IMG/VR virus record: IMGVR_UViG_3300029305_005547
Location: 96,001 to 160,000 of that record
Direction: 5' to 3' (one strand)
DNA from: a virus
Lineage: Duplodnaviria; Caudoviricetes
Length of the DNA: 64,000 nucleotides
The notes beneath the pieces are model-generated. The model saw only the letters and a program-made list of their open reading frames with translations. It was not told the DNA's origin and searched no databases. Below are positions 1 to 58,460 of this stretch, one piece after another. The stretch's first letter is position 1, and every line of letters begins with the position of its first letter. The translations under genes and the position numbers were made by a program.

Positions 1-105
1 GGATCACTATCCGAATTATATGACCAACTTTTAGATGAAGAAGAAGCATATATCAAATCTCAATTAGATTCGCGAAACTACATGAATGACATGGACGGAA
101 TTTAG
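1..105 (+). CDS. 3' end of an upstream gene (partial); its stop codon lies inside repeat copy 1
   Basis: Frame 1 is open: GSLSELYDQLLDEEEAYIKSQLDSRNYMNDMDGI*, with TAG at 103-105 inside ACGGAATTTAG. Confidence 0.6.
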   Translation, partial: GSLSELYDQLLDEEEAYIKSQLDSRNYMNDMDGI

Positions 106-175
106 TTAAGTAAAATTTCTGTAAGTCTCGATATTTCTCGAGACTTACAGATTCTTTATTTAGCTAAATTAGTAA
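95..175 (+). repeat. 80-bp cassette repeat, copy 1 (extra T in core: CTAAATTAGTAA)
   Basis: Direct match to the other nine copies. Confidence 0.97.
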
Positions 176-464
176 TGTAACATCAGCTCTCAAATGTAGA
201 ATTGCGTCATTTTATAATCAAATTACTGCAATGAATCCAAATATAAAATATACATTATCACTAAATTTTCTGCCTTCAACATGTTTGTATATATTTATAT
301 CATGTAATAACTTATATTATACTGAAGTGGTATTGCTTGCTAATTACTGGAGGTCAACATTTGGTAATGGGTATTATATTGATTTCACATATGATGGTAA
401 TGCATATGAAATAACTGCTGTAAGTAATGTGACACGCAGATTTCATATTTTTACGTCAAATTAA
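171..464 (+). CDS. Silent tail-fibre tip cassette 1 (start-less, SNVTSALKCRI...)
   Basis: Open frame from AGT AAT of the core through ORF 231-464; no RBS. Confidence 0.65.
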   Translation, partial: SNVTSALKCRIASFYNQITAMNPNIKYTLSLNFLPSTCLYIFISCNNLYYTEVVLLANYWRSTFGNGYYIDFTYDGNAYEITAVSNVTRRFHIFTSN

Positions 465-470
465 AATGAT

Positions 471-501
471 AAGAAAGATATCAGGATTCTGATGTCTTTC
501 T
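471..501. terminator. Intrinsic terminator hairpin
   Basis: AAGAAAGATATCAG...CTGATGTCTTTCTT followed by a T-run. Confidence 0.7.
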
Positions 502-559
502 TATTTTTATGCATATATTATTTTTATGTATAATAATAAACTCTGGAGGTACAAAAGTT

Positions 560-1243
560 ATGCAAAAAATTATTTTCCAATCATTACGTGAACCGCTTGA
601 TATTTTAAAAGCGAAATTCATTCCTTCCCAAGCAGATTCATGCCCGTCTACAAAAACTGAACGTAAAGTAATACCAGTTCCAGGTGGTCAATTTTACGCA
701 ACTATGCAAGAATATAATATCAAAAGAGATATGCAATGTGCTATGTTTATGTGTCCTTGTTGCTTTGAAGTTTTTGTTGTTCAAATGGAGTATTCAATAA
801 ATATCAATGCTGTAAACTTAACACGAGGCTTAAAATTAGATTTTGGTCATATTCTTAAAGTGTTTGCAGATGAAGGATGTCCTGAGTGTAATGAAGAAGT
901 TGAATTTGTGAAATTAGATCCTAATATTGCTTCTACAATTTCGATATTAAATCAGAAAGGTTATTATACAGCTTTTTGTTGTGAACACCATTTTGGTGAA
1001 GACTGTGGTTCATCTTCTCCATATGTTGCATTTAAAAATACTGACATATTTGATTACCTTGATTATTTACCAGACTCGTGGTATCCGGATTTTGAAAGCT
1101 ATAAATTATATGGTACCCCTGTATTAAGGGCAACTACGCCTAGAAATCCTTATGAATTAAAGGAAACAATTTTTGAATTGTTAGATTTTGTAAGGCAACT
1201 TCCAATTTCTAAAACACTAAGTAGTAAATTACAAGTACAATAA
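560..1243 (+). CDS. Hypothetical Zn-binding protein
   Basis: GGAGG at 545 favours ATG 560; CPCC, CPEC and CCEHH motifs; TATATTATT motif upstream. Confidence 0.65.
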   Translation: MQKIIFQSLREPLDILKAKFIPSQADSCPSTKTERKVIPVPGGQFYATMQEYNIKRDMQCAMFMCPCCFEVFVVQMEYSININAVNLTRGLKLDFGHILKVFADEGCPECNEEVEFVKLDPNIASTISILNQKGYYTAFCCEHHFGEDCGSSSPYVAFKNTDIFDYLDYLPDSWYPDFESYKLYGTPVLRATTPRNPYELKETIFELLDFVRQLPISKTLSSKLQVQ

Positions 1244-1346
1244 TTTAGATAAAAGAGTATACTTTTTAAGGTGTACTCTTTTATTTTTTCCTTTCTTATG
1301 CTCTAAAAGACATTCAAGTAATAATCTTACAGAAAGGAAAAATGAT

Positions 1347-3458
1347 ATGAAAAGTCCTTTTTTAGAATTCTATAAAGCAGATGCAGTAGATGCTTTGTTA
1401 GATATTAACCCTGAATGGGATAGAGATGAAGTAGATGAAATTGTGGAAAAGGAAATGAAAAAATCATTTTCAAATCCATCAGTTGTAATAGATAATAATT
1501 TTAAAAGAGAAACACAAAGTTCGACATTACTCACAATAATGGATTGGGCTATAGATAAAGAGCCTCTTATTGCGGGTAATGGTACTTTTTATAAAAATCA
1601 ACATCAAGCAGCAAATCCTATTGCTAATATGCTTGATGGTATGTTAAAACGAAGAAAAGCTTTAAAGAAAGAAATGTTTAAAGTTGAAGATAAAACAAGC
1701 CAGCGATATAAAGATCTCGATTTGGCACAACAAATTCAGAAGATAAATGCGAATAGCTACTACGGTGCTAGTGGTATGCCAGCATCTGCATTTTTTAGTA
1801 AATGGTCTGGTGGATGTACCACAGGTTCTTGCCAATCTGTTATTAGTACTTGCTATTCAACATTTGAAGCTTTTATTGCAGATAATTTTGTTTTTATGGA
1901 TATTAATGAATGCTTTAATTGGTTAAAAGTAGTAAGAGAACAAATAGCATTGGATCCAGAAACAGTATCGTGGTTGAAACCACATACAAAAAGAGATGTT
2001 TACGAAAAATTAAAAGGTATGTTTTTTCATTGGAAAGACTCTTATGAAGATATGCTTTGGAAATATGTATGTAATTTAGATGATAATGAAATCAATAGAA
2101 TTTATTATCGTAATAGATTACAGGAATTTACAGAAGATCATAAATATGTAATTGAACTTAATAAACGTATTTTGGATAATGTAAATATTTATCCAGTTCT
2201 TCCAAAAAAACTAGCTGAAAAGAAAGATGGATCTTGGGAAAAGGAAATCCCTCAAGAGTTTGTTGGAAAATTTTTAAGTGGTTTGGATTATAATTCGTTT
2301 GCTTGTAAAGAAGCATTCATGGATCCAAATGATATTCCCAAGAGTGTTGAAAAGGAGGTTAAAGAATTAGGTGCTTTATATATGAAATATGTATATACAC
2401 AATATCTAGTCTTTGACCGTATTTACAGACTTAAAAACTTTGGAAGAAAAACAGTAATGGTTATAGATACAGACTCAAACATTTTAGCACTTGATGAATG
2501 GATTGAGTTTGTTTTCGATAAATTTGCAAAATTGTCTGATAAACCTAAGGAAAATATTGAGTTTATTTTGATAAATACAATCACATATACGCTTACTCAG
2601 GTAGTAACAGACATACTTCTATTTTATGGTAAGTGCTCTAATATACCTGAAGAATTTAGAGGACGATATGCTATGAAGAATGAATTCTTTATGAGAAGAT
2701 TAATTATCTCTGAAGTAAAGAAAAGATACATGTCATTATTTAAACTTAGAGAAGGTAATTTACTTAATCCTCCTAAGACCGATATCAAGGGATTTGATTT
2801 TAAAAAGTCAGCTACATCTGATGTTTGTGAGGAAATATTTACAAGATTATCAGAAGATTATTTATTAAAAGCTGAAGAAATCGATGTTAAAGGTCTTAGA
2901 AATGAATTAATGGAACTTCAAAAAACTATCATGGAAGACATTCAGTGTGGTAATTTAACTTATTTACCAAATGCTAATGCTAAAGAATTAGCAGCGTATG
3001 CTGAACCTGGAAGTGAACAATCTGTACGAGGAGTAATTGCTTGGAATTTATTAAATCCTGAAAGCCAGATAGAACTTCCTTCTAAAGTAAAATTACTTAA
3101 GCTTATGATATTTAAAGAAGAAGACATTGAACCTCTTAGAAGAACTAATCCAGATATTCATAAAATTATTATTGATGAAATATTCAATGATACATCTGGA
3201 ATATTTGTAACCAAGAGTGTTAAAAATGGAAAAGTTAATATCAAATCAAAAGGAATGCAAGTGTTAGCAATACCCAATAATGCTTCAATTCCAGATTGGG
3301 TAAAACCATATATTGACTATACAAATGTAATTGGTTCTATTATGGCACCATACAAATCTGTAACTGACCTTCTTAAAATAAACTGTGTAAGTACAGGATA
3401 TAAAAAGAATGGTATTAATAGAGAAACAGAATCATTTACAAATATAATCACATTTTAA
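1347..3458 (+). CDS. Family B DNA polymerase, catalytic subunit of the split jumbo-phage type
   Basis: KINANSYYG (motif B), DTDS (motif C), KKRY, DIKGFDFKKS; no proofreading exonuclease domain seen. Confidence 0.88.
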   Translation: MKSPFLEFYKADAVDALLDINPEWDRDEVDEIVEKEMKKSFSNPSVVIDNNFKRETQSSTLLTIMDWAIDKEPLIAGNGTFYKNQHQAANPIANMLDGMLKRRKALKKEMFKVEDKTSQRYKDLDLAQQIQKINANSYYGASGMPASAFFSKWSGGCTTGSCQSVISTCYSTFEAFIADNFVFMDINECFNWLKVVREQIALDPETVSWLKPHTKRDVYEKLKGMFFHWKDSYEDMLWKYVCNLDDNEINRIYYRNRLQEFTEDHKYVIELNKRILDNVNIYPVLPKKLAEKKDGSWEKEIPQEFVGKFLSGLDYNSFACKEAFMDPNDIPKSVEKEVKELGALYMKYVYTQYLVFDRIYRLKNFGRKTVMVIDTDSNILALDEWIEFVFDKFAKLSDKPKENIEFILINTITYTLTQVVTDILLFYGKCSNIPEEFRGRYAMKNEFFMRRLIISEVKKRYMSLFKLREGNLLNPPKTDIKGFDFKKSATSDVCEEIFTRLSEDYLLKAEEIDVKGLRNELMELQKTIMEDIQCGNLTYLPNANAKELAAYAEPGSEQSVRGVIAWNLLNPESQIELPSKVKLLKLMIFKEEDIEPLRRTNPDIHKIIIDEIFNDTSGIFVTKSVKNGKVNIKSKGMQVLAIPNNASIPDWVKPYIDYTNVIGSIMAPYKSVTDLLKINCVSTGYKKNGINRETESFTNIITF

Positions 3459-3470
3459 TGAGGTGATAAA

Positions 3471-3707
3471 ATGACAGAATATGAAAAAGTTAAATCTTTA
3501 TTAGATGAACTTAAAATTCCATATGAAGAAAAAGATGCAGATTATTGGAAGAATAGTGTAACTATTCCAGATAAAGAAGATATAATAAAAGAATTGAATG
3601 AAACAGGTGCTAAAGGATTAGAAGTTACATTAACGTTAGGATTTGGTTTTTGCAATATTCTCTTTACGAGAAATACTGAAAGGTTTATTGCTGTAGAAAC
3701 TGATTAA
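3471..3707 (+). CDS. Hypothetical protein
   Basis: ORF with GAGGTG RBS, followed by a terminator hairpin. Confidence 0.7.
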   Translation: MTEYEKVKSLLDELKIPYEEKDADYWKNSVTIPDKEDIIKELNETGAKGLEVTLTLGFGFCNILFTRNTERFIAVETD

Positions 3708-3801
3708 TAGAAATAGGAGATGATTTTGTTTCATCTCCTATTTATTTTTTGTGGAAAATGCAACAAAAAATTCGACAAAATTCGACATTTACTTAGATAT
3801 G

Positions 3802-3881
3802 ACGGAATTTAGTTAAGTAAGTTTTCTGTAAGTCTCGATATTTCTCGAGACTTACAGATTCTTTATTTAGCTAAATAGTAA
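3802..3881 (+). repeat. 80-bp cassette repeat, copy 2
   Basis: ACGGAATTTAGTTAAGTAAGTTTTCTGTAAGTCTCGATATTTCTCGAGACTTACAGATTCTTTATTTAGCTAAATAGTAA. Confidence 0.98.
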
Positions 3882-4428
3882 TGGACCTAGTAGTGGTTGT
3901 ATGCGTTCTCTTGAAGATCAATACGTTTTAAAAATACAAGATGATAGTAATCTTGTAGTGTATAAAGTAAGTGATGATACAGTTGCATGGTCATCTAATT
4001 ATCATACACATAGTTATTTATCATTAGCAGGTGGTACATTAACTGGAACTATTTCAACTAGAGGTATTCAACCTTCTACTACAGCTACATATTCATTAGG
4101 CACAACACAATATATGTGGTCTGGAGTATGTTCTAAATACTTCTATTCTATTGGCACTGACACTGGGGTATATGCACAAATATATCCTGCTACATTAGGT
4201 ACAACAAGTACTGTTGGTAAAGCATATGTTCATGTTGGTAATAATACAGCGTCAGGTACTGCTAAGAATGCTAGAGGATATTTAAGATTATTTGGTTCAT
4301 CATCAGGATATACAGATATTCAAACAGGATATAACTCTACATCAAATATTACACTTACACTTCCTAGTAAAACAGGTACTATTCCTATTGTATCTTTATC
4401 TGGTACAACTTTAACTATTACTACTTAG
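3871..4428 (+). CDS. Silent tail-fibre tip cassette 2 (bulb-lectin-like motif plus fibre repeat; ends LSGTTLTITT)
   Basis: In frame from LNSNGPSSGC; QDDSNLVVY motif; SYLSLAGGTLTG...GYLRLF segment resembles the tip of 40210-42090. Confidence 0.85.
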   Translation, partial: LNSNGPSSGCMRSLEDQYVLKIQDDSNLVVYKVSDDTVAWSSNYHTHSYLSLAGGTLTGTISTRGIQPSTTATYSLGTTQYMWSGVCSKYFYSIGTDTGVYAQIYPATLGTTSTVGKAYVHVGNNTASGTAKNARGYLRLFGSSSGYTDIQTGYNSTSNITLTLPSKTGTIPIVSLSGTTLTITT

Positions 4429-4439
4429 GAGGTATAAAT

Positions 4440-5033
4440 ATGGCTATTGTTATGAATGGAACTACTATACCTACTAAAAAAGGTAATATTAAATTTAATG
4501 GTACCGAAATTACAGAGGTTATTTGTAATGGAACATCTGTATGGAAAGTAGTATCAGACCCTATTTATATAGTAAAAGATGGTGTGTTACAAGATACTAT
4601 AGCTCCTAATCCATCATATCAGGCACCAGGACACTCATTATCATACGGTAACTGGTTACTTAGTGCAACTGATCCTTTATGGGGAGTTGGTGGTCATACT
4701 AATGGTTCAACCGTATCTGTATGGTATGCTAAAACTGGATCTATAAATACTGAAGGTGCATCAACATTAGACATATCTGTTAGAGTTGCATGTGATGGTG
4801 ATGCATATGCAAAAAATATAAGAACTATTGTAAAAAGCGGTTCTACAGAAATTTTTTCAAAAAATGAAGTTTATGATGTGGTAACTAACTATTCGTGTTT
4901 ATTTTGGGATAGATTTAGTTATTCAGTCGACATTTCAAAATATTCAACTATAGAAATAATTATAGAATCAAATTCTACCAGCAGCTCTAATGCATGGATA
5001 CGAATTGGTGTTGAAAGTGCTGTTATGAAATAA
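4440..5033 (+). CDS. Partner adhesin / fibre-tip protein of cassette 2
   Basis: GGAGG RBS; N-terminus MAIVMNGTTIPTKKG...CNGTSVWK shared with 23500, 29364 and 30488; variable beta-rich C-terminus. Confidence 0.75.
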   Translation: MAIVMNGTTIPTKKGNIKFNGTEITEVICNGTSVWKVVSDPIYIVKDGVLQDTIAPNPSYQAPGHSLSYGNWLLSATDPLWGVGGHTNGSTVSVWYAKTGSINTEGASTLDISVRVACDGDAYAKNIRTIVKSGSTEIFSKNEVYDVVTNYSCLFWDRFSYSVDISKYSTIEIIIESNSTSSSNAWIRIGVESAVMK

Positions 5034-5076
5034 TAATGGTTAGTTATAAAGATAAATGCGAGTAAGGGAATTTCCC

Positions 5077-6336: not shown

Positions 6337-6452
6337 TATATCTGACCTCCGTTTCTATTTTACTTATAAGAATGTCATTTGATTATATTATGCTTAGTTA
6401 ATGAAGAGATATATTATTTATTTAGAATTATTAGAAAGATGGTGATGTATTA

Positions 6453-6791: not shown

Positions 6792-6792
6792 T

Positions 6793-9402: not shown

Positions 9403-9412
9403 ATGAAATGAG

Positions 9413-22028: not shown

Positions 22029-22119
22029 AATAATCCACCTTCCTATACATTAAAAAAATGTTTTAATAGTTAAAATATGAGAGTATTGTGTTAACCTTGT
22101 AATAAGGTTGGGTGGGTTG

Positions 22120-22199
22120 ACGGAATTTAGTTAAGTAAAATTTCTGTAAGTCTCGATATTTCTAGGGACTTACAGATTCTTTATTTAGCTAAATAGTAA
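22120..22199 (+). repeat. 80-bp cassette repeat, copy 3
   Basis: Direct match; stem variant TAGGGAC. Confidence 0.97.
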
Positions 22200-22737
22200 C
22201 AAAGCAGATACTAATCATACTCATAGTGGATATGCAACGAGTTCTCACACTCATAGTTATTTACCGCTTGGTGGTGGAACGTGTACAGGTGTTGTTATTG
22301 TAAATAACAATATAAAGGCTAGTCAATATAGAGCGTTAGATAATAGAGATGTATATTTAGTATCAGCATCTAATTCATATGTCGCGAGACTTTGTGCTAA
22401 GGAAATTCATTGTAATAATACAGGTGTGACTGCTAATGTACCTATATATGCATCTGCATTTACAAATCCTAGTAGTATACGATATAAAGAAAATGTCAAA
22501 GATCTTGATTTAGAATATGCTAAACAAATTTTAAAATTAAGACCTGTAACGTATGATTATAAAAATAAAGAAAACGGAATTAATTGTGTAGGTCTTATAG
22601 CAGAAGAAGTGTATGATTATATTTCGTATCCAGTTATTTTTAGCGAAAATGTAATTGAAGGTTTAGATTATGCTAAATTGGTCACACCAATTCTTAAAAT
22701 TTTACAGGATCATGAAAAACGTCTATCTTTTTTATAA
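22189..22737 (+). CDS. Silent tail-fibre tip cassette 3 with HTH(S) repeats and a peptidase S74-like chaperone domain
   Basis: In frame LNSNKADTNHTHSGYATSSHTHSYLPLGGG...SSIRYKENVKDL...LRPVTYDY...GLIAEEV...LDYAKL. Confidence 0.88.
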   Translation, partial: LNSNKADTNHTHSGYATSSHTHSYLPLGGGTCTGVVIVNNNIKASQYRALDNRDVYLVSASNSYVARLCAKEIHCNNTGVTANVPIYASAFTNPSSIRYKENVKDLDLEYAKQILKLRPVTYDYKNKENGINCVGLIAEEVYDYISYPVIFSENVIEGLDYAKLVTPILKILQDHEKRLSFL

Positions 22738-22769: not shown

Positions 22770-22849
22770 ACGGAATTTAGTTAAGTAAAATTTCTGTAAG
22801 TCTCGATATTTCTCGAGACTTACAGATTTCTTATTTAGCTAAATAGTAA
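22770..22849 (+). repeat. 80-bp cassette repeat, copy 4
   Basis: Direct match. Confidence 0.97.
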
Positions 22850-23486
22850 TATGGTGACTGTACATGGCGGACGAATGAAAGGCAATCTTCAATTGAAACC
22901 TTTAACAGGTGGAACTGATGGTGCTGAAGGTGGTGAATTACAGTTAAGTGCAGCTGACGATGGAAAGAAGTATTCTAATTTAACTTTGGATAACTATAAA
23001 GGATATTTTAGATTATTTGGACTTAAATCTGAAGATGGTACGACAGTAGTAGGTGAATCTGCAATGATTCAGATTCACCCATTTAATAAAACAATGACAA
23101 TTGATAGCAATTATAAAATAAATAATAAAACTACTATTGATAAACTTGGATATTTATCAAATGTTACCAGCGATATACAAACACAACTTAATGCAAAAGC
23201 AGTAAAAACATCGAATTCATTCACTGGAGCACAAAAAGTATCTATGGCATTTGCCCCAGCTAATAATAACTATACTGCAGCCCATTTTTCAGCAGAGGCT
23301 AGTAATGCTAGTACAACTTCAAATAGAGCTAGTTATGGTTTTCATAATTCTGGAGTTGTTGCAGGCATATTATATTTAGATAATGATGGAAATCTTAAAT
23401 ATATTAATAATAGTGGAACTATATCAAAAATAATGAGATCTTCGCATTTTTCTTTAAGTGGTACAACATTAACTATTACTTTATAG
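22839..23486 (+). CDS. Silent tail-fibre tip cassette 4 (ends LSGTTLTITL)
   Basis: In frame LNSNMVTVHGG; LGYLSNVTSDIQTQLNAK fibre motif; no RBS. Confidence 0.85.
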   Translation, partial: LNSNMVTVHGGRMKGNLQLKPLTGGTDGAEGGELQLSAADDGKKYSNLTLDNYKGYFRLFGLKSEDGTTVVGESAMIQIHPFNKTMTIDSNYKINNKTTIDKLGYLSNVTSDIQTQLNAKAVKTSNSFTGAQKVSMAFAPANNNYTAAHFSAEASNASTTSNRASYGFHNSGVVAGILYLDNDGNLKYINNSGTISKIMRSSHFSLSGTTLTITL

Positions 23487-23499: not shown

Positions 23500-24402
23500 A
23501 TGGCTATTAAAGTTGGAAATACTACTATACCAACTACAGAAGGTAGTTTAAAAGTTGGATCTACTAAAATAACTAAAGTTAATGTGGTGAAAGATGGAGT
23601 AACAACAACTGTATGGCAAGTTTCTAGTTTTTCATCTAAAGAATTTAATTATACAGGAGGAGTACAAGCGTTTACTGTACCTGTTACAGGTACATACCTT
23701 CTTGAAGTTAAGGGTGCACGAGGCGGTCATGTAACTAACCATATTGCAGGTGGTTTTGGAGGATATGCTAAAGGATATGCAAATCTTACAGCAGGTCAAA
23801 CTATATATGTCTGTGTGGGTGGACAAGGAACAGATTGTAGTCAAAGAGGTAGTGAAATAAACACTCAGCCAATAACTTACCCTGGTGGATATAATGGTGG
23901 TGCTAATGCACCTACAGTATTATATTATAATGGAAGTGGAGGAGGATGTACTCATATAGGTACATTCAACTCAACGTTAGCTGATCATGGATCTACAAAC
24001 GGATTATTTATTGTAGCTGGTGGTGGAGGAGGCGCTTCATATCACGATGATACGCATTATGGTGTTGGTGGTACTGGTGGTGGAACTACTGGTGGAAATG
24101 GAACCGTTATAGGAGATTATGTTTCAGATGATTACTTTTCATATGGAACTGGCGGTACACAAACTGCCGGTGGTTATAATGATATAGGTGAAACCCCTGA
24201 CCTATATAGAGGATTTTTCGGAAAAGCTAATAGTGATATCCATAATTCTGCTGGTGGCGGAGGCGGATTATATGGTGGTGGTCCTGGTGGAGGATGGTCT
24301 GGAGCTGGTGGTGGTTCTGGATATATAGGAGGAGTCACATCAGGTTCTATGGAAAATGGTGTTCGAGATGGAAATGGTTGGGCTAAAATTACATTAGTCT
24401 AA
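23500..24402 (+). CDS. Glycine-rich partner adhesin of cassette 4
   Basis: GGAGG RBS; shared MAI...TTIPT N-terminus; FNYTGGVQAFTVP and many GGGGG runs. Confidence 0.8.
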   Translation: MAIKVGNTTIPTTEGSLKVGSTKITKVNVVKDGVTTTVWQVSSFSSKEFNYTGGVQAFTVPVTGTYLLEVKGARGGHVTNHIAGGFGGYAKGYANLTAGQTIYVCVGGQGTDCSQRGSEINTQPITYPGGYNGGANAPTVLYYNGSGGGCTHIGTFNSTLADHGSTNGLFIVAGGGGGASYHDDTHYGVGGTGGGTTGGNGTVIGDYVSDDYFSYGTGGTQTAGGYNDIGETPDLYRGFFGKANSDIHNSAGGGGGLYGGGPGGGWSGAGGGSGYIGGVTSGSMENGVRDGNGWAKITLV

Positions 24403-28947: not shown

Positions 28948-29027
28948 ACGGAATTTAGTTAAGTAAGTTTTCTGTAAGTCTCGATATTTCTCGGGACTTA
29001 CAGATTCTTTATTTAGCTAAATAGTAA
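28948..29027 (+). repeat. 80-bp cassette repeat, copy 5
   Basis: Direct match; stem variant TCGGGAC. Confidence 0.97.
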
Positions 29028-29352
29028 TGGACCTAGTGGTGCTTGTTTTAAATCTGCACAAAACGGATATACATTTATATTACAAAGTGATGGAAATCTT
29101 GTATTATATAATTCATCCAATAACGCTATATGGGATTCACAATCACGCCCTGCCACAGGTTCTTCTCCATTTTTTGCAAGTATCCATTTAGGCTCAGCTA
29201 GTGGTTTAGGACCATATATTTATACTGATGCAAATAATGGTTATGATTTACTATTCAGATATAAGAAAAGTGATGGTAATTTTGGATATAAAAACATGAG
29301 GAATATAGGTCATATGACATTATCTGGAACTACTCTTACTATTACAATTTAG
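29017..29352 (+). CDS. Silent tail-fibre tip cassette 5 (not in ORF track; bulb-lectin-like; ends LSGTTLTITI)
   Basis: Hand translation: LNSNGPSGACFKSAQNGYTFILQSDGNLVLYNSSNNAIWDS...HMTLSGTTLTITI*. Confidence 0.88.
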   Translation, partial: LNSNGPSGACFKSAQNGYTFILQSDGNLVLYNSSNNAIWDSQSRPATGSSPFFASIHLGSASGLGPYIYTDANNGYDLLFRYKKSDGNFGYKNMRNIGHMTLSGTTLTITI

Positions 29353-29363: not shown

Positions 29364-29849
29364 ATGTCTATTATTGTAAATGGAACCACTATACCTACAT
29401 CAAAGGGTAAAATTGTAGTTAATGGTGTGCAAATAACAGAAGTTAAATGTAATGGAACTAGTGTATGGAAATCATCAGCAACACCAATAACTAAAACATA
29501 TTCATATACGGATAATTCAAGTGATGATCAAGAATACAGAACTTATAGTTCTACGTTAGATACAGTATCACTTAGTGGTCATACTAAATTAACTATAAGT
29601 GCTTCTGTAAAAACTGCTTCATGGAATAGCTGGGATGGTAACGGAGTAGATGCTAATGTTGTTGTTGATGGAACTGTTTATTCTTTATACAAACGAACAC
29701 AATGGGATGGAACATCTCAAGGTTCTACATATACAAAAACTTTAGAAATAAATATTTCTGGAAAATCTTCCGTTACTATAGGAGTATCTGGTGGAGATAT
29801 AGGATCTACGCATACTATAACGACATCTTTGACATGTACTTTCACATAA
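29364..29849 (+). CDS. Partner adhesin of cassette 5
   Basis: GGAGG RBS; MSIIVNGTTIPTSKG...CNGTSVWK. Confidence 0.78.
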   Translation: MSIIVNGTTIPTSKGKIVVNGVQITEVKCNGTSVWKSSATPITKTYSYTDNSSDDQEYRTYSSTLDTVSLSGHTKLTISASVKTASWNSWDGNGVDANVVVDGTVYSLYKRTQWDGTSQGSTYTKTLEINISGKSSVTIGVSGGDIGSTHTITTSLTCTFT

Positions 29850-29885: not shown

Positions 29886-29965
29886 ACGGAATTTAGTTAA
29901 GTAAGTTTTCTGTAAGTCTCGATATTTCTCGAGACTTACAGATTCTTTATTTAGCTAAATAGTAA
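29886..29965 (+). repeat. 80-bp cassette repeat, copy 6
   Basis: Direct match; directly follows the GGTTAGTTATA end motif of cassette 5. Confidence 0.97.
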
Positions 29966-30476
29966 CGTAAATAAAGTTATTTCTGGAGAAACTGCTGTAG
30001 GATTAGCATATCTATTACATTCAGGTTCTAATGCTCCAGTATATGGTAAATCTGGATTAGAATATATGAATACGACCGGAGATGGAACAACGTCAGGTCC
30101 AAAGAAGAATTCAACACCTGTTGCAAATACATGGTTTCATAAAATACGAATGAATCATGCAAATGGAGATGGATACTATACTGAAGTAGCATTTCCAATG
30201 GTTAATGATAATGGTATTCATTATAGAGTTATTTCAGCTGGTCATGAAATATTTACATGGAGACAACTTGTAGATATAACATATCTGTCATCTCTAAATT
30301 ATGCAACAATGACTGGAGTAGAATCTAATGGAAACTTGGTCAGAAGGCATCCATCTTATTCAAATATAATGTATTTAGGATGGAATGGATCCAGTATTGT
30401 ATGTAGAGTAGATACTACAGATTTTACACTTTGTAGAGCGTCATTATCCGGTACAACACTTACTATTACAATTTAG
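29955..30476 (+). CDS. Silent tail-fibre tip cassette 6 (ends LSGTTLTITI)
   Basis: In frame LNSNVNKVISGETAVG... running into ORF 30066-30476. Confidence 0.85.
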   Translation, partial: LNSNVNKVISGETAVGLAYLLHSGSNAPVYGKSGLEYMNTTGDGTTSGPKKNSTPVANTWFHKIRMNHANGDGYYTEVAFPMVNDNGIHYRVISAGHEIFTWRQLVDITYLSSLNYATMTGVESNGNLVRRHPSYSNIMYLGWNGSSIVCRVDTTDFTLCRASLSGTTLTITI

Positions 30477-30487: not shown

Positions 30488-31102
30488 ATGTCTATTATTG
30501 TAAATGGAACCACTATACCTTCATCAGGAACGATTAAAGTTGGTAATACTAATGTAACAAAAGTAAATGTTGTAAAAGGTTCTACAACTACTACAGTATG
30601 GGAAAAGATTACTGACATTAATATTACGTCATACACTCTTCAATCAAGTGGTTATACTGATGGTTGGATTGATTATGACCGTCCTTCTAATCCTATAGTT
30701 TTATCTGGTAATAGTATCACTATTCAAATTGATGCTGGTGGTGGATATAATGGTTATGGATATGCGTACTTACTTTCAACAAATACCTTTACTCCATCAG
30801 GACAAAGATTAACTATAACTGGTACTGTATATTGGAATGGTAACCATTATGGTGTTAATAAGATGGCAGTAGAATTATACAATACATCAACAGGAGCAAC
30901 AACTACTGTTATGAGTCTTGCAAGTATAAGTGGCAGTGCTGATGGTAGAGGAGTACTTCAATCTACAGCTGTTAATAAAACATTTACATTACCATCATTA
31001 TCAGGCACATATAAACTGAGAATCCGATATGACACTGAAGGATATTTTGATGGTACTGGTTATGGTAAATTAACATTAACGAGTGTTGTTATAAAACCTT
31101 AA
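30488..31102 (+). CDS. Partner adhesin of cassette 6
   Basis: GGAGG RBS; MSIIVNGTTIPSSG...TKVNVVKG...TVWEK. Confidence 0.78.
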   Translation: MSIIVNGTTIPSSGTIKVGNTNVTKVNVVKGSTTTTVWEKITDINITSYTLQSSGYTDGWIDYDRPSNPIVLSGNSITIQIDAGGGYNGYGYAYLLSTNTFTPSGQRLTITGTVYWNGNHYGVNKMAVELYNTSTGATTTVMSLASISGSADGRGVLQSTAVNKTFTLPSLSGTYKLRIRYDTEGYFDGTGYGKLTLTSVVIKP

Positions 31103-31201
31103 CATATGAATGTATAGGTTAGTTATATAGTAAAATCATATCTCTTGCGATTGATTTATAGATATGATATATTGACTTTGTGAAGAGTGGTGACAGGGGG
31201 G

Positions 31202-31281
31202 ACGGAATTTAGTTAAGTAAGTTTTCTGTAAGTCTCGATATTTCTCGAGACTTACAGATTCTTTATTTAGCTAAATAGTAA
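31202..31281 (+). repeat. 80-bp cassette repeat, copy 7
   Basis: Direct match. Confidence 0.97.
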
Positions 31282-31873
31282 CAAGCAAAATTCACTAGGA
31301 TTTGTTCCTGTTAGACAAGGAGGCGGTGTAGATCAAAGCTCTAATACGGTTAATATTGGTTGGACTGGTTCAAAGTTAAAATGTACAATAGATGGATGGT
31401 ATGACTTAGGTGGGTTCTCATTTGAGAGTCATACTCATAATAGTTTAACTAATATTTCATTTGGACAAGATCCGGAAGGAAATTGGGGATACATACCAAG
31501 CGGTGCTGATACAGTAACCCCTTTTAAAAGTTTACATGATGGTAAATGGATACAAGCGGAAATTGAAGCTAAGTTTGTTATATATAAACCTTGGACTACT
31601 GATGTAACATCATATATTTCACCATCTGATTTTAATCAATTACTAGGATATATTGTTGAAGCTAAGAGTGGTGCCGTAGGAACAGCTTGTTTCTTAATGT
31701 CAGATGGAACTTATTCAGTGTCAAACTGGCATACAAGTAATGGTACTAATAGAAAATTTGTTAGTGCTTCAGATGTATATGAAAAAACTTCAACATCAGT
31801 AATCATAAAATCTCCTTATTGGTTAGGATTAACAAATACAAATATGAGATCATATTTCATTATGTATAAATAA
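31271..31873 (+). CDS. Silent tail-fibre tip cassette 7 (200 codons, not in ORF track)
   Basis: Hand translation: LNSNKQNSLGFVPVRQGGGVDQSSNTVNIGWTGSKLKCTIDG...GNWGYIPSGADTVTPFK...RSYFIMYK*. Confidence 0.88.
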   Translation, partial: LNSNKQNSLGFVPVRQGGGVDQSSNTVNIGWTGSKLKCTIDGWYDLGGFSFESHTHNSLTNISFGQDPEGNWGYIPSGADTVTPFKSLHDGKWIQAEIEAKFVIYKPWTTDVTSYISPSDFNQLLGYIVEAKSGAVGTACFLMSDGTYSVSNWHTSNGTNRKFVSASDVYEKTSTSVIIKSPYWLGLTNTNMRSYFIMYK

Positions 31874-35270: not shown

Positions 35271-35350
35271 ACGGAATTTAGTTAAGTAAAATTTCTGTAA
35301 GTCTCGATATTTCTCGGGACTTACAGATTCTTTATTTAGCTAAATAGTAA
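35271..35350 (+). repeat. 80-bp cassette repeat, copy 8
   Basis: Direct match. Confidence 0.97.
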
Positions 35351-35627
35351 GGTGGATAAATCGGGAATTGTTTTTAGAAATTTTAGATCATTTTCAGTTA
35401 AAAGTACAAATCCTATTGCGGTAAACGCTTATGAAATAATCACCCTAGATTTGTCTTCATATAATTATACAAAAAGTCCACATGCATTTATTTCTTCAAC
35501 TTTTTTATGTTCAGTTACTATATCTAATACATCGGCAACTTCAGTAACAGTTACATTATATAATTTATACGGATCATCTCAACAGTGCAGTTGTGTAATA
35601 TATTTATTTGAGTTAAATTCAGTATAA
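35340..35627 (+). CDS. Silent tail-fibre tip cassette 8
   Basis: In frame LNSKVDKSGIVF...; small beta-rich domain; no RBS. Confidence 0.8.
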   Translation, partial: LNSKVDKSGIVFRNFRSFSVKSTNPIAVNAYEIITLDLSSYNYTKSPHAFISSTFLCSVTISNTSATSVTVTLYNLYGSSQQCSCVIYLFELNSV

Positions 35628-38933: not shown

Positions 38934-39227
38934 ATGTTAAATTCAAACCAATTTTCAGATTTAGATGCTGCTAAAAGCGATCTTGAAAGCAAACAGATTA
39001 TTTTAAAGACAGGAATTGATGTGCAGGCATTGCTTAGAATTTTAGTCGATAAAGAAATAATCACAAGAGAAGAAATTAATAAATATAGAGAAGAGGTAAG
39101 TTCTTCTCCAAAATATGCAAATGCTCTTAAATATGTTGAGCAAACCCTTGAAGAAATTAAATATTACGAGACTCATCCTCAAGAGAGATTGCAGGAAATG
39201 TTTAGACGAAAGATGCAGGAAAAATAA
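38934..39227 (+). CDS. Hypothetical protein
   Basis: AAAGGAG RBS. Confidence 0.7.
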   Translation: MLNSNQFSDLDAAKSDLESKQIILKTGIDVQALLRILVDKEIITREEINKYREEVSSSPKYANALKYVEQTLEEIKYYETHPQERLQEMFRRKMQEK

Positions 39228-39228
39228 T

Positions 39229-39654
39229 ATGGACAATACAATTATAATTAAAAACTTTAATCCTGGTGCTAAAGGATTTAAAGTTATGAGAAAAGAACAA
39301 GAAGGATGTTCTGTATTAGCAGAATTTAAAAGAATACCAGATACAGGAATTGGTGATATGAGTGATGGATACCATACTTTTAATGAATTATATCACCATA
39401 GAGCAATATTATTTTCTGTTATCTGTAATATGTTTAAAGATAAAGCATGGAAATCATTAATGCATCATGATGGTAAGATGTATGATGGTATGTTCATTGT
39501 AGGAATTGAAACACCTAATGGGCAAGCAACATATCATTATGATGTAGATCCTTATTTTGATTTATTTGATGTAAAGGAACTTGAAAATGCTCCGGAATGG
39601 GATGGTCACACACCTGATGAAGCAATTGAAAGAATTAAATCTTTGGTTGTGTAG
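39229..39654 (+). CDS. Conserved phage protein (YHTFNELYHHR type)
   Basis: SDGYHTFNELYHHRAILF...GQATYHY...APEWDGHT; ATG 39229 follows the previous stop. Confidence 0.7.
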   Translation: MDNTIIIKNFNPGAKGFKVMRKEQEGCSVLAEFKRIPDTGIGDMSDGYHTFNELYHHRAILFSVICNMFKDKAWKSLMHHDGKMYDGMFIVGIETPNGQATYHYDVDPYFDLFDVKELENAPEWDGHTPDEAIERIKSLVV

Positions 39655-39680: not shown

Positions 39681-39698
39681 ACGGAATTTAGTTAAGTA
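39681..39698 (+). repeat. Left 18 bp of the cassette repeat (half-site upstream of the expressed fibre)
   Basis: ACGGAATTTAGTTAAGTA is identical to repeat positions 1-18, then the sequence diverges. Confidence 0.9.
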
Positions 39699-39846
39699 TT
39701 CTAAACAAAACCCAAAAAGTTAAGTAACTTAAAAAAAATTATATTTAATCGATAAAATAACAAAAAAAGTAAGGGTAGTTACAGCTACCCTTACTTGAAT
39801 ATTCCAAGATTGGCTTGTATGAGCATTTTGACCTCTTGTTTTCTAG

Positions 39847-40017
39847 TTAGAACAACTGATCAGACAATGCCTGAATCAAAGCCATTCTAACTGAGAAAAT
39901 GTTGGCATATCTGTTTGGATCAGACTGCCAAGCTGTCATGAAACTAGCATCGGTATCAAAACCGTTTGCTAGTTTCATTTCGTTGTATAACTTTCTCAAG
40001 TTATCAATATAACTCAT
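39847..40017 (-). CDS. 56-aa hypothetical protein between the two half-sites
   Basis: AAGGAGG RBS before ATG 40017; TATATTATT promoter; terminator 39768-39796. Confidence 0.7.
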   Translation of the reverse strand: MSYIDNLRKLYNEMKLANGFDTDASFMTAWQSDPNRYANIFSVRMALIQALSDQLF

Positions 40018-40120
40018 GTTAAAACCTCCTTCCTTAGAATATTCATGATAATAATATATCATCGAAAATATAAGGATTTCAGAGATTTTTTTACACATCT
40101 ACACAGCTTTCTAATATAAA

Positions 40121-40134
40121 AACATTCTACTAAG
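40121..40134 (+). promoter_or_regulatory. Late-type promoter of the tail-fibre gene
   Basis: AACA-TTCTAC-TAAG; the same ACA-N6-TAA spacing recurs upstream of more than 15 genes. Confidence 0.7.
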
Positions 40135-40209
40135 TAATTACCATAGAGAAATCTATGGGTCTCAATTATTTTTTCATGAAAGAATAATAGAAAAGGAGGC
40201 GCTCGAGAT

Positions 40210-42090
40210 ATGGCGACTACAAGAAAACATATTGAGATGACCCGCATTGATTCAAGCGGTAATCAGGATATATTATATCCAAAGAATACACTCGCCGATG
40301 TCCACACAAGTTCGACATCCGGCGTTACAATTGAAGGAAAGGTAATGTTCTACGGTACTTGTTCTACAGCCGCTGCAACAGCTGCAAAAGTAGCTTCTGC
40401 AACAGGTTTTGTTCTTAAGGCAGGTGCTCATGTTACCGTTAAATTTACAAATGCTATTACTGTAGCAAGTGCTACATTGAACGTAAATAGTACAGGTGCA
40501 AAGGCAATTCATTACGAAGGTGCAGCTTTAAAGGCTAACGTTATTCGTGCTGGCGCTTCTGTTGAGTTCGTTTACGATGGTACTAATTACCTCGTAGTTG
40601 CAGGTGTAAATCCTGCATATGTTGAAAATAAGAATACCACTAAGTTCTACTTACTTGGTACTCCTAATAATGCAGCAGGAATGCCTTCTGCTGAATATTT
40701 TGATACTGGTGTTTATGTAAGTACAACATCAGGTCAGTTAGTTGCAACATCATTCTCTGGTAATGGTTCTGCATTAACAAACTTAAATGCAAGTAATGTT
40801 AAAAGTGGTACATTAGCAGCTGAAAGACTTGCTACATCTGGCGCAACAGCAGGTTCATATGGATCTTCTGCAGATGCAACTGTAGCAGATTCAGGATCAT
40901 TCACTGTGCCTTATGTAACAGTAGATGCATATGGTCGTGTAACAGCAATTAAAAACGTTACTCTTACATTGACAAGTGATGCTAACTCTGATACAAAAGT
41001 TACAAATACCTTGAATACTACAGCTAAAGCTTATATTACAGGTACTACTTCTGCAACAACAAATACTGGTACTCAGGTATTTGATACTGGTGTTTACCTT
41101 GATACAACTGCAGGAAGACTTACTTCCAGCTCTTTACTTACCGGTACATGTTATTTAGGAAGTTCAACTTCTAACTACATTAACGGTACAAACTATACCG
41201 GAACTGCTGCAAAAGTTGGTACACTTTCTGGTTGGTTGATAGATAGTTGTGCTTCTGCAAGTGCTAACGGAGTAACCAATAAGGCGCTTACAGCAAACCA
41301 GGGCTATTTGTTGCAAAATCAGATTGATACACTAAATAGTAATATGAGTAGTTATTTACCTTTATCAGGTGGAACATTAACTGGTACATTAACAAGTAGA
41401 AATGTAACACCTAGTGCTAATGTATCATATTCATTAGGTTCGACAACAAGAGTATGGACAAATTCATTTGTTAAAACCATGTATATATATGATGGTACAA
41501 ATACATCATCTAATTGCGGAAGTTTTGCAGTTTCTAATGTAGGTACAACATCTGCAGAAGGAATAGCATATCTAATGGTTGGTAATGCTACTTCGTCAGG
41601 AACAGCTGGAAATTCTACTGGTAGATTGCGTCTTTATAATAAGTGGGGCGGTTATGCTGATATTATACCAACAGTTAATAGAAGAGATAATTATACTTTA
41701 AAATTACCTGGAGAAGCTGGAGTATTAGTGAGTGACAACACGATAAAACATGTTGTTGGTAGTACTAAGACTGGAAAAGTTAGTACAAATGAAATAGCTG
41801 GGTTGATTGGTGTTGGTGGAGTTATACTTTCTATGCAAGTATTTGCCCAGATAAATGGAAGTACTACTATTGTAGTATCAACGGAAATACCAAGGAAATC
41901 TGACGTTTCAAGAATAAGAGCAGGATATTTTCAAAATATGGGGGTTTCTGATTCTAATGGTGGAGCTGTATATTGGGATATAGATCAAAGTTTTAATATA
42001 TCTTTAGCATATGCCTATTTGAATGGTACTGAGTATTCAACTACAACAAAATGGTGGATTGAATATACTTATATTGACATTGTCTCATAA
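40210..42090 (+). CDS. Complete tail fibre (expression locus): 374-aa constant part plus exchangeable tip starting at LNSN
   Basis: AAAGGAGG RBS; Thr/Ala/Gly-rich fibre repeats, PYVTVDAYGRVT motif; CTAAATAGTAA at 41332-41342 in frame. Confidence 0.92.
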   Translation: MATTRKHIEMTRIDSSGNQDILYPKNTLADVHTSSTSGVTIEGKVMFYGTCSTAAATAAKVASATGFVLKAGAHVTVKFTNAITVASATLNVNSTGAKAIHYEGAALKANVIRAGASVEFVYDGTNYLVVAGVNPAYVENKNTTKFYLLGTPNNAAGMPSAEYFDTGVYVSTTSGQLVATSFSGNGSALTNLNASNVKSGTLAAERLATSGATAGSYGSSADATVADSGSFTVPYVTVDAYGRVTAIKNVTLTLTSDANSDTKVTNTLNTTAKAYITGTTSATTNTGTQVFDTGVYLDTTAGRLTSSSLLTGTCYLGSSTSNYINGTNYTGTAAKVGTLSGWLIDSCASASANGVTNKALTANQGYLLQNQIDTLNSNMSSYLPLSGGTLTGTLTSRNVTPSANVSYSLGSTTRVWTNSFVKTMYIYDGTNTSSNCGSFAVSNVGTTSAEGIAYLMVGNATSSGTAGNSTGRLRLYNKWGGYADIIPTVNRRDNYTLKLPGEAGVLVSDNTIKHVVGSTKTGKVSTNEIAGLIGVGGVILSMQVFAQINGSTTIVVSTEIPRKSDVSRIRAGYFQNMGVSDSNGGAVYWDIDQSFNISLAYAYLNGTEYSTTTKWWIEYTYIDIVS

Positions 42091-46928: not shown

Positions 46929-46975
46929 AGGATTTGATGCGCTACTGTAGTTGAAGATATTAGGTAGGGGGTTGG

Positions 46976-47055
46976 ACGGAATTTAGTTAAGTAAAATTTC
47001 TGTAAGTCTCGATATTTCTCGGGACTTACAGATTCTTTATTTAGCTAAATAGTAA
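46976..47055 (+). repeat. 80-bp cassette repeat, copy 9
   Basis: Direct match. Confidence 0.97.
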
Positions 47056-47413
47056 CGCATCTGTTATTGGAGATATATTTACATCATATGGACAAATGAC
47101 ATGTGTTGGAAGTGAAGGTGGTGGAACTGGAAGTACAAGTACAAATGTAAATGACATACCTAATGGTATTTACTGCGCAATTATCACAGTTGAAGCATGG
47201 GTTGGACAAAATACAAACGTACAAATAAATTCTAATGGCATCAATACCAATAATACATTTATGTATGCATATCAGACAGGAAGAAATACAATTCAGCATG
47301 TATCTATAGTAAATATAACTAACGGCATATTTACAATTTATTTATTTCATAATGATTCTGTAAGTGAGGCACGTGCATTTAATTGGCGCGTTACATTAGT
47401 ACGTATAAAATAA
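47045..47413 (+). CDS. Silent tail-fibre tip cassette 9
   Basis: In frame LNSNASVIGDIFTSYGQMTCVG... Confidence 0.8.
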   Translation, partial: LNSNASVIGDIFTSYGQMTCVGSEGGGTGSTSTNVNDIPNGIYCAIITVEAWVGQNTNVQINSNGINTNNTFMYAYQTGRNTIQHVSIVNITNGIFTIYLFHNDSVSEARAFNWRVTLVRIK

Positions 47414-51798: not shown

Positions 51799-51999
51799 TT
51801 ACATTAGCCCATTACATGAGAGAATGGAAATGATACCAATATGTTCATTGTCCTTGCACTCGTGAGTTTCAGCAATTAACATTGCTTTGTACATCTCTGA
51901 TTCATCAGTAGACATATCGTGTACATTACCTCCGAGTTGATCATATTTTACTTTTCTAAGTCCACTCTCCACAAATTCATCATATGTAACCATTTCCAT
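51799..51999 (-). CDS. Small hypothetical protein
   Basis: AAGGAGG RBS. Confidence 0.6.
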   Translation of the reverse strand: MEMVTYDEFVESGLRKVKYDQLGGNVHDMSTDESEMYKAMLIAETHECKDNEHIGIISILSCNGLM

Positions 52000-52020
52000 A
52001 CCTCCTTATTTTATTTAGTT

Positions 52021-52221
52021 TTACATATGTTTATATGTATATTTTTCTCCTAAGACATAGTACAACGCATCTAATTGAGACTCAATATTATATGAGTTCA
52101 TCAGAATACGTTTGTCGTAAGGATACGTAGCAGTTTTATATAACTCTTCATTTTCTTTTAATTTAGTTTCTAATTCTTCAATTCTATTCCGTATTTCAGA
52201 TTCATTTAAAACTTTACCCAT
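52021..52221 (-). CDS. Small hypothetical protein
   Basis: GAGGA RBS, early promoter motif. Confidence 0.6.
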   Translation of the reverse strand: MGKVLNESEIRNRIEELETKLKENEELYKTATYPYDKRILMNSYNIESQLDALYYVLGEKYTYKHM

Positions 52222-52343
52222 CTTTTTATCCTCACTTTATCATGTTATTCTATACAATAATATACGTTTGATTTTTCTTAGTTTTCTGGTATTTTTTACC
52301 CAGAAAACATTTTCGTAATGACAAAGAAAGTAGGTGACAGATA

Positions 52344-57182: not shown

Positions 57183-57222
57183 AAAAGAACGACAGTTGGT
57201 AAATTCCAACTGTCGTTTTCTT

Positions 57223-57606
57223 TTATTTTTTAAGCTCTACATATTCCTCAAGCTCACGTCTTGTCGTCATTCCTGTCTCATATTTGTAACAAAATTCTAT
57301 CATTTGTTTCTTTATAACATCAGAATGACCAAGAGCCAATGAACAACAATTTTTACAGTAGTTTACTCTAAACTGTTTGCTACCTGCAAACTCACTTACT
57401 TCGATATAACCAAGTCGAATAGCCTTTTCAATAAGTTCTTCAAATTCATCAGGTACACTAACAGTAGTACGGGTATTTATAGAATTAGTTTCACACTCTA
57501 CAAACCAGATATTACCACTATTTGCAAGACTATAAATAATCTTACCATCAGAAATGAAACCATTCAATTCTTCAATACTACTAAACTTCTTAATCTCTTT
57601 ACTCAT
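57223..57606 (-). CDS. Hypothetical protein
   Basis: GGAGG RBS. Confidence 0.65.
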   Translation of the reverse strand: MSKEIKKFSSIEELNGFISDGKIIYSLANSGNIWFVECETNSINTRTTVSVPDEFEELIEKAIRLGYIEVSEFAGSKQFRVNYCKNCCSLALGHSDVIKKQMIEFCYKYETGMTTRRELEEYVELKK

Positions 57607-57791
57607 AAGTACCTCCGGCTCTTGGATATTTTATCCTCCACCATATTTAATTTTATATTTAGTTATATTTGCCTATAGATCATTACGTTTCATGCTATAG
57701 CGCTATGTAATTTATTTTTTATTCACAAAAATATTATATGTTTGAAAATGCTGACTTTACGGTTCATAGAAAAGTAGTTTGAAGTGCTGTT

Positions 57792-57871
57792 ACGGAATTT
57801 AGTTAAGTAAGTTTTCTGTAAGTCTCGATATCTCTCGAGACTTACAGATTCTTTATTTAGCTAAATAGTAA
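57792..57871 (+). repeat. 80-bp cassette repeat, copy 10
   Basis: Direct match; loop variant TATCTC. Confidence 0.97.
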
Positions 57872-58460
57872 GAATTACCCTCCTACATGGACGTTTGGAT
57901 CTAATGGAAATGTTAATGATTTAGCATATACAATGCATACACAATTTAGTTCAGTGAAATCAGGATTTTGTTATTTAGGTGATAGTAATTCTATGTATGT
58001 CGGTATTTCTCGAACATCAGGTGATGTAGGATCTATTTTATTTGCAGATATAGCAAATACCGGAAAAGTATATTTATGGAATAGATCGACTATTCATGAA
58101 AATGGATATATACTAAAAACACTAGCATTTCAAGAATCATTTGATCCTGTTGTAGATAGTTTTACATCGTCATATATTCAAGTTACTGTATCAAAAAGCG
58201 GTAAAATAAAAAATATATTTTTTAATTCTACCCCAAGTGCTGATTTAATAGCAAAAACATCCTATCATCTTACAACCATTACTAATAGTAATTATTTACC
58301 TTCACGTGAATTTAAAAAAGAAATATGTATTTCAACTACATCTGACGGAAAAATATATACAGCTAATTTAACCATTACAACTGGCGGAGCAGTATATCTA
58401 TATCCTCGTCAAACAATTTCAGTCAGTATCCCATTATATGTAAATGAGTTTTTCATTTAA
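57861..58460 (+). CDS. Silent tail-fibre tip cassette 10
   Basis: In frame LNSKNYPPTWTFGSNG...; C-terminal SKSGKI...YLPS...LTITTGGAVYL receptor-binding-like domain. Confidence 0.83.
   Translation, partial: LNSKNYPPTWTFGSNGNVNDLAYTMHTQFSSVKSGFCYLGDSNSMYVGISRTSGDVGSILFADIANTGKVYLWNRSTIHENGYILKTLAFQESFDPVVDSFTSSYIQVTVSKSGKIKNIFFNSTPSADLIAKTSYHLTTITNSNYLPSREFKKEICISTTSDGKIYTANLTITTGGAVYLYPRQTISVSIPLYVNEFFI

Follow-up and report, generated by a model that had tools for sequence, protein, structure and literature searches.

Phages are known to alter the receptor-binding tip of their tail fibres by means of invertases such as Gin of Mu and Cin of P1, of shufflons, and of diversity-generating retroelements (DGRs), and each of these switches occupies one small locus that offers either a few alternatives or point variants. 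The underlying principle – a constant 5′ part joined by DNA recombination to start-less 3′ parts – is an established one, found in shufflons, the Rin system, the vsa genes of Mycoplasma pulmonis and Gin/Cin. In vsa one promoter and 5′ end are joined by site-specific recombination to silent genes that lack their 5′ ends; the products are cellular surface antigens, the genes occupy one or two loci, and the events are inversions at a single type of site, vrs. In sfx, the shufflon site, only one arm and the central sequence are conserved. The arrangement that we describe here lies in a 64,000-nucleotide stretch of DNA (the window) comprising bases 96001-160000 of the virus record IMGVR_UViG_3300029305_005547 (278,849 bp, 32% GC), and consists of one complete tail-fibre gene and ten copies of an 80-bp repeat, the element, that are associated with silent, start-less fibre tips. 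The size of the record, together with a gene content that includes divergent family B DNA polymerase, SMC-like, RNA-polymerase beta-like and tail-tube-like proteins, identifies the virus as a jumbo phage, DNA of which is found in animal faecal and gut metagenomes and whose host probably belongs to the Firmicutes. On balance we favour an explanation in which a site-specific exchange of DNA at two joints switches the receptor-binding tip of the tail fibre of this phage.

The silent loci share a single layout: an 18-bp left box (L), a 51-nt hairpin spacer (H), an 11-bp right box (R, or core) and then the tip. The exact core, CTAAATAGTAA, is matched ten times on the window's + strand; tolerance of one mismatch gives 17 window matches over the two strands, against 4.85 expected, and none of 100 shuffles reaches 17. 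From the CTA of the core a frame opening with L-N-S-(N/K) runs free of stops for 95-215 codons in nine of the copies, while a TAG stands directly upstream of the core, the remaining two frames are closed by stops within it, and neither a start codon nor a Shine–Dalgarno (SD) sequence is possible in the fixed sequence ahead of it. Copy 1 (95..175, +) retains its L box and hairpin spacer; its damaged R box has one extra T, reads LN* and is dead, and no tip follows. Ten repeats on the + strand of the window, nine open frames, the TAG and the extra T had all been claimed in the original prediction, and frame analysis bears this description out. The suggestion that the cassettes share one orientation fared differently: the genome as a whole holds 18 copies – the search for further copies was thus rewarded – of which 13 are on the + strand and five on the – strand, so that the uniform orientation is an artefact of the window. 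One of the 18 is truncated and one damaged; the remaining 16, which are all the intact ones, share the open LNS(N/K) frame, which extends over 94-457 codons. The elements lie between the 19- and 172-kb marks of the genome, in arrays of three at most.

The nine tips of the window, all on the + strand, follow copy 2 (3802-3881; tip 3871-4428, 185 codons), copy 3 (22120-22199; tip 22189-22737), copy 4 (22770-22849; tip 22839-23486), copy 5 (28948-29027; tip 29017-29352), copy 6 (29886-29965; tip 29955-30476), copy 7 (31202-31281; tip 31271-31873, 200 codons), copy 8 (35271-35350; tip 35340-35627, 95 codons), copy 9 (46976-47055; tip 47045-47413, 122 codons) and copy 10 (57792-57871; tip 57861-58460, 199 codons). 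They are mutually unrelated and are not point variants of each other. Of the domains first assigned to them, the S74 chaperone of the tip at 22189 is solid (Pfam Peptidase_S74, E = 2.9e-9, with PHROG tail-fibre matches and His-box motifs besides), the lectin of the tip at 29017 is weak (B_lectin, E = 0.004, below the Pfam cut-off), and the remaining window tips have no Pfam match. Three silent tips have a close partner in a related 275,512-bp phage with direct terminal repeats (G001), and their ratios of non-synonymous to synonymous change are 0.13, 0.27 and 0.71; these ratios rest on few changes and are not decisive.

The single complete fibre gene (40210..42090, +; 626 aa) carries the same core in the same frame, as had been predicted: its R box (41332..41342, +) is read L-N-S-N within ...QNQIDT-LNSN, and marks the point at which a constant part meets an attached tip (41332-42090). 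The 18-nt L box, the sequence with which every element opens, occurs just once in the genome outside the elements, at 39681..39698 (+), directly preceded by a WDGH-domain gene (39115-39654) and 1633 nt before the fibre core. The expression locus therefore reads L–M–R, the 1633-nt module M (39699..41331, +) sitting where the silent loci have their 51-nt spacer. Within M lie a second copy of an arm motif, a terminator, a small minus-strand open reading frame (ORF), the fibre promoter region, the SD sequence and fibre codons 1-374. The original prediction had seen a joint in the 11-bp core; the core is indeed the in-frame joint, but it is one of two, the 18-bp left box bounding the module as well.

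Some features of M and L merit separate mention. The arm motif, GTTAAGTAA, recurs in direct orientation within M, 28 nt from its left end (window 39719-39727; ~185965 in G001), with equal spacing in both phages. The 83-aa ORF (39847-40098, –) has no Pfam or PHROG match and no counterpart in the M of G001, and is probably dispensable for exchange. A role of the L box as a general promoter was considered and rejected, motif GTTAAGTAA being almost confined to the elements of this genome.

The full fibre gene has no match in Pfam or PHROG; relatives of its constant part bear Phage_fiber_2, Peptidase_S74, H_lectin or DUF3751 tips, and one phage record names the match 'tail protein'. Fibres recovered by a search with the constant part agree with it at 95%, 74%, 71% and 66% identity as far as ...QNQI-x-x-LN-(S/C)-(N/K); immediately beyond that point no relationship is left. 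The proposal of one expression locus, joined in frame at the core to tips dispersed without starts, is thus upheld by fibres that share the constant part and then continue into other tips.

Evidence that DNA changes partners at these boxes comes from comparison of strains. The site behind the WDGH gene (the exact WDGH protein has no record of its own; a homology search yielded a near-identical one) holds M in this genome and in contig L011, and a hairpin element with a silent tip in L070 and L071; the four strains have four different tips after R. The reverse is seen at the context of copy 1, where L010 has M and this genome has H. A third case is provided by L046 and L069, which come from different samples: they have in common 30 nt of unique left flank and the L box, and from the core onward a right flank of 5.7 kb that is 98.9% identical; between the same boxes L046 has M and L069 the hairpin spacer. 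The fibre encoded on L046 (P0006) joins the constant part of the G001 fibre (P0007) to a tip that G001 keeps silent at 185577. Moreover, L046 and L047 have different tips attached to M modules that agree at 99.39% identity. In these alternations of M and H the flanks are not inverted. Taken together, the contigs demonstrate precise re-assortment at both L and R, with the expression module at different archive sites. The original prediction had called for a comparison of related genomes, and assembled contigs reveal alternative junctions at the level of DNA; the accompanying idea that tips are simply brought to a fixed expression site is not supported, for between near-identical strains it is the promoter and N-terminal module that swaps with the hairpin spacer.

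The same organisation recurs in other lineages with different sequences. Searches of the phage GenBank collection by DNA and by protein returned no close relative, and exact-pattern scans of viral_contigs and metagenome_contigs found no instance of this genome's hairpin, in collections from which records close to the genome itself may be excluded; G001 is nevertheless informative. It has 30 hairpin elements, on both strands, with the core AAACTGCAAC, and all 30 open one fixed frame (N-C-N...) for 89-275 codons, the other frames being closed within 30 codons. (This count depends on the form of the query: the longer CTAAACTGCAA matches the fibre only, the shorter core finds the 30 elements.) The single G001 fibre has AAACTGCAAC exactly at its junction, ...ELNCN, and the phage's own L box lies upstream of M. 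In the L066/L067 and L068 lineages the element core is TAAATAGTAA and again matches the lineage's own fibre junction. Identity between fibre junction and element end is thus maintained in four lineages even though the sequences differ. The more distant fibre relatives L001-L006 are without the element. Two further observations concern these genomes. In G001 there are 36 L boxes for 30 exact R cores, from which it follows that some elements (for example near 124.6 kb) carry variant cores. L067 encodes an RVT_1 reverse transcriptase (L067:9266-10414) 2.2 kb downstream of the fibre and behind a 517-aa protein, and may have a DGR alongside the cassette system.

The elements have also left a footprint on gene order. 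This genome and G001, at ~70-75% DNA identity, resolve into 33 synteny blocks: an element-free backbone of >100 kb is collinear, and the element-bearing 13-173-kb part is scrambled in order and orientation. Nineteen of the 20 sites in this genome fall in block boundaries, where random placement within the scrambled part gave a mean of 8.2 and a maximum of 16 (10,000 trials); in G001 the figure is 30 of 32, against a random mean of 10.4 and a maximum of 22 (5,000 trials). Such concentration indicates that recombination at the elements has repeatedly rearranged both genomes. Breakpoints free of elements have only ordinary, unique terminator hairpins. Copy 1 lies at a synteny breakpoint, as does a truncated element on the minus strand (genome 41459-41518) that has the L box and hairpin without R box or tip. 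A 5-kb block that includes a recombinase gene (genome 62877-67880) has, with respect to the blocks on either side of it, opposite orientations in this genome and in G001, and at its borders we found no element and no convincing inverted repeats.

A central issue is the nature of the site. Each joint can be read as a central sequence outside the stem of the hairpin and a conserved arm inside it: in this genome ACGGAA followed by TTTAGTTAAGT on the left and, read on the other strand, TTACTA followed by TTTAGCTAAAT; in G001 the central sequences are GGAACC and GGTTGC, with a similar arm after each. With unlike central sequences, each kind of joint should pair with its own kind alone, L with L and R with R. 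In G001 the element has the opposite orientation with respect to its tips – its R side and the reverse-complemented L side of this genome are homologous – which makes the two feet of the hairpin equivalent joints. At the expression locus of both phages the left joint has its central sequence and the whole arm, and the right joint its central sequence and 5-6 nt of arm, presumably because the remainder must encode the conserved end of the fibre shaft. There is one conserved arm per joint; the outer side is formed by a G-rich tract (L) or by tip codons (R), and the outer side of the L joints is 46% G here and 56% G in G001, compared with 14-16% genome-wide. The 12 nt upstream of every element are G-rich and almost free of C (e.g., window 22108-22119, 31190-31201 and 46964-46975), and could serve as the site's outer arm, as a signal of the Chi or G4 type, or in some other way.

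The original prediction had suggested a search for the enzyme. The genome encodes one tyrosine recombinase (genome 64172-65197, outside the window and ~71 kb from the fibre gene), which scores 231 bits against the NCBIfam XerA-type model (cut-off 220), has the Pfam domains Phage_integrase and, at its N-terminus, Phage_int_SAM_4, and is 73% identical to its G001 copy. The same genome-wide search found no serine recombinase (PF00239), reverse transcriptase (RVT_1), Y1 HUH transposase, IS110-type enzyme or RtcB; of the enzyme types first named, therefore, a recombinase was found and an HUH nuclease and a reverse transcriptase were not.

Under the two-joint exchange that we favour, the element behind which each tip is stored, devoid of promoter, SD sequence and start codon, would be made up of two recombination joints in inverted orientation with H between them, L being ACGGAA plus an arm of 11-13 nt and R the same kind of arm plus AGTAA. 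A single M takes the place of H between one L and one R, and the tip that follows this R is translated. Exchange at L and R between two loci would swap M and H, and M would reach another tip with gene order kept, whatever the distance or orientation of the loci; this would take two steps – excision and re-integration where sites are direct, two inversions where they are inverted. Exchange at R alone would place new sequence behind M, and single events, once fixed, would give rise to inversions and scramble the blocks between elements. The likeliest catalyst would be the phage's Xer-like tyrosine recombinase, which we regard as a candidate, and the tip so acquired would presumably set host range. 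A stronger version of this proposal, to which we subscribe only tentatively, is that the system may represent a natural recombinase-mediated cassette exchange: an Xer-like enzyme, acting at two heterospecific one-armed sites, would trade a mobile promoter and half-gene for a hairpin placeholder at any of 17-36 sites and so programme the choice of receptor-binding tip, possibly at a rate that is useful within a single infection lineage, and with essential genes undisturbed.

Several observations weigh against a dedicated site-specific system. Recombination was not observed directly: all alternations are between strains and none within a clone, and no clean alternative junction emerged from a check of sequencing runs that covered Logan contigs of animal faecal metagenomes. 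(In run X1 one contig departs from the reference precisely where the L box ends, with 12 unaligned letters, and a second has its start 30 nt ahead of the final base of the core; either could be explained by a mixture of strains or a single-base variant, and neither is counted as evidence.) The compared strains are 0.6-6% divergent in sequence, so exchange could be rare, and the G001 arrangement recurs, with 100% identity and in the same order across many elements, in six IMG/VR contigs from other samples, which indicates that its dominant form is stable. About half of the synteny breakpoints in this genome have no element, and 80-bp repeats would attract general homologous recombination anyway. 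Neither the fibre gene nor an element adjoins the recombinase, the task of which could instead be the resolution of dimers. At 8-9 of 11 positions the arms agree with the XerD arm of dif (sequence from PMC2731167), a likeness that, in a short match within AT-rich DNA, offers only a lead; a canonical two-arm or palindromic dif-like 28-bp site is absent from both genomes; and in the L066 lineage no L box is found within 210 nt upstream of the fibre gene. One might thus picture the same archive and the same exchange of DNA with no enzyme of their own, the repeats and boxes being hot spots for general or short-homology recombination of phage or host, and rare recombinants rising only where a new host selects for them, as in the His-box mosaics of T-even fibres. 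The divergence of the strains and the stability of the G001 arrangement fit such a process, inversions and scrambled blocks are what any dispersed 80-bp repeat gives, and SMC/Rad50-like and Mre11-like proteins are encoded. We nonetheless consider it unlikely, given that identity at the expression locus extends over just 18 and 11 bp and yet exchange has been precise at both boxes in two lineages, that the box sequences evolve in concert with the elements of each lineage, and that the combination of central sequence and arm, the G-rich outer flank and a conserved Xer-like recombinase fits site-specific recombination.

The hairpin itself could be what is recognised. Folded as single-stranded DNA or as a cruciform it might form a site like integron attC or attP(+) of the CTX phage, where exchange of a single strand is followed by replication, or be cut by a structure-specific nuclease, with M or H then copied in from another locus by non-reciprocal conversion. 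The element does fold as a long, stable, two-part hairpin (-39.2 kcal/mol, z = -6.6), and its stem mismatches are G-T on one strand, which favours that strand (sense -35.7, antisense -25.7 kcal/mol, in this genome); in G001 the homologous strand is again the better folder, though it runs antisense to the tips of that phage. Comparison of this lineage with L066 reveals compensatory changes at three pairs of the inner stem, and the recombinase has an N-terminal SAM_4 domain, which integron integrases possess too. Against this, there is no covariation within a genome, where the pairs are invariant; a palindromic protein-binding site predicts between-lineage covariation equally well; and the inner region of the G001 hairpin is variable and poorly paired. 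GC skew tracks gene orientation and yields no origin, and so provides no replication polarity with which to test the strand bias, and the integron-integrase models score the recombinase far below their cut-offs (83 bits against 265, and 51 bits against 435). All told, a folded substrate strikes us as improbable. Joining at the level of RNA – trans-splicing, or template switching by a polymerase at the core, with the DNA differences incidental – had been offered as an alternative in the original prediction and draws on the structured leader of the tips and on the core that they share with the fibre mRNA. It receives very little credence from us: the window has no Rfam match at gathering thresholds, so no known ribozyme family, and no tRNA gene; no RtcB was found in the genome; in G001 it is the strand antisense to the tips that folds the more stably; the L box lies outside the fibre transcript and yet is kept, and co-evolves, at the expression locus; and DNA contigs with alternative joints exist. 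That the tips are instead translated alone as separate proteins, by unusual initiation (for example at an SD-like G-rich tract, such as precedes every element, that the hairpin would bring near) or by ribosomal bypass of the hairpin, is scarcely credible. A few tips have an ATG or GTG right behind the core, but most have no in-frame start near it; in this genome and in G001 an in-frame stop lies zero or one codon ahead of the core; for most elements no upstream ORF reads into the element; and in relatives the tips are covalently fused to the fibre exactly at the junction. Two specific forms of translation were tried and rejected, namely bypass over the hairpin in the style of T4 gene 60, where the landing codon is again followed by TAG and most elements have no incoming ORF, and an SD sequence and start split across the hairpin, where in-frame starts are missing.

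Other features of the genome are set down here. Four window tips end in the shared peptide LSGT(T/V)LTIT(T/L/I), at 4419-4428 (LSGTTLTITT, copy 2), 23477-23486 (LSGTTLTITL, copy 4), 29343-29352 and 30467-30476, and a fifth tip with this ending is found at genome 171852. Each of the four precedes a gene with its own start: an accessory gene opening with ATG (4440-5033, +), a 300-aa glycine-rich protein with an ALK_LTK_GRD domain (23500-24402, +), a small gene (29364-29849) and a further accessory gene (30488-31102). The products may be adhesins or chaperones that dock on the shared tail. The gene for the divergent family B DNA polymerase (1347-3458) lies downstream of copy 1. At its two ends (genome 1-100 and 278748-278845) the record has ~100 nt in common at 96% identity; it is classed as linear without end repeats, and the shared ends could represent either a terminal repeat of short length or an overlap from the assembly of a genome that is circularly permuted.

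In full-text literature searches we found no description of dispersed fibre cassettes, nor of the features that set this arrangement apart: 17-36 tips over ~150 kb, a double joint with a placeholder, a moving promoter and half-gene, and genome-wide shuffling of blocks. What the comparisons bring to light is a phage with dozens of unrelated tips among essential genes, in which, as the comparison of strains shows, the expressed front half relocates precisely from one tip to another. If an enzyme drives the process, it would constitute a natural two-site cassette exchange at short (~11-20 bp) sites, and as such be of interest to genome engineers; it would explain how gut jumbo phages retain so wide a potential range of hosts; and it would tie host-range switching to genome rearrangement, accounting for a scrambled middle in an otherwise collinear genome.

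Among known systems, this one resembles the shufflons (Rci/sfx acting on pilV in R64; Rin in Bifidobacterium prophages, PMC6109161) in joining a constant 5′ part to alternative start-less 3′ tips at a short site inside coding sequence, and in having a tyrosine recombinase as the candidate enzyme. The segments of a shufflon, however, are clustered in a few kb beside the recombinase gene and move by inversion only, whereas here the 17-36 tips are scattered over ~150 kb among genes for DNA polymerase, RNA polymerase and SMC; the sites are double, L and R around a spacer; the promoter and 5′ module itself changes place; and in lieu of a neighbouring Rci/Rin-type recombinase there is an Xer-like one ~71 kb from the fibre. 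Closest in documented behaviour are the pdif, or pXerC-D, modules of Acinetobacter plasmids, in which dispersed Xer-type sites are inverted around modules, which are thereby shuffled (PMC9947245, PMC13141974), and active pairs of sites share a central spacer, leading to inversions and fusions (PMC9947245). The likeness extends to many dispersed sites bounding modules and to the presence of an Xer-family tyrosine recombinase. It ends with the full 28-bp XerC/XerD sites, host enzymes, plasmid setting and whole-gene modules of pdif: here a single arm is conserved in each joint, the phage itself encodes the recombinase, half a gene that has to join in frame makes up the module, and the action of the enzyme is inferred.

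As regards vsa, a hairpin placeholder and a two-site exchange are features of the phage system only. Integrons likewise combine cassettes that lack promoters with imperfectly palindromic sites and a tyrosine recombinase whose N-terminal domain is of the SAM_4 type, but they stack entire genes at a single attI downstream of Pc, and the cassettes of the phage are dispersed and lack the 5′ half of the gene. Gin, Cin and DGRs serve the same purpose, a change of tail-fibre tip; this genome has neither serine invertase nor reverse transcriptase, and its alternatives are far more than two and unclustered. Finally, the pairing of one expressed copy with many silent, 5′-truncated ones recalls the archives of Neisseria pilE/pilS, Borrelia vlsE and trypanosome VSG. 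Those archives are read by homologous gene conversion into a fixed site, whereas in the phage the joints are short and precise, and the expression module turns up at one archive site or another.

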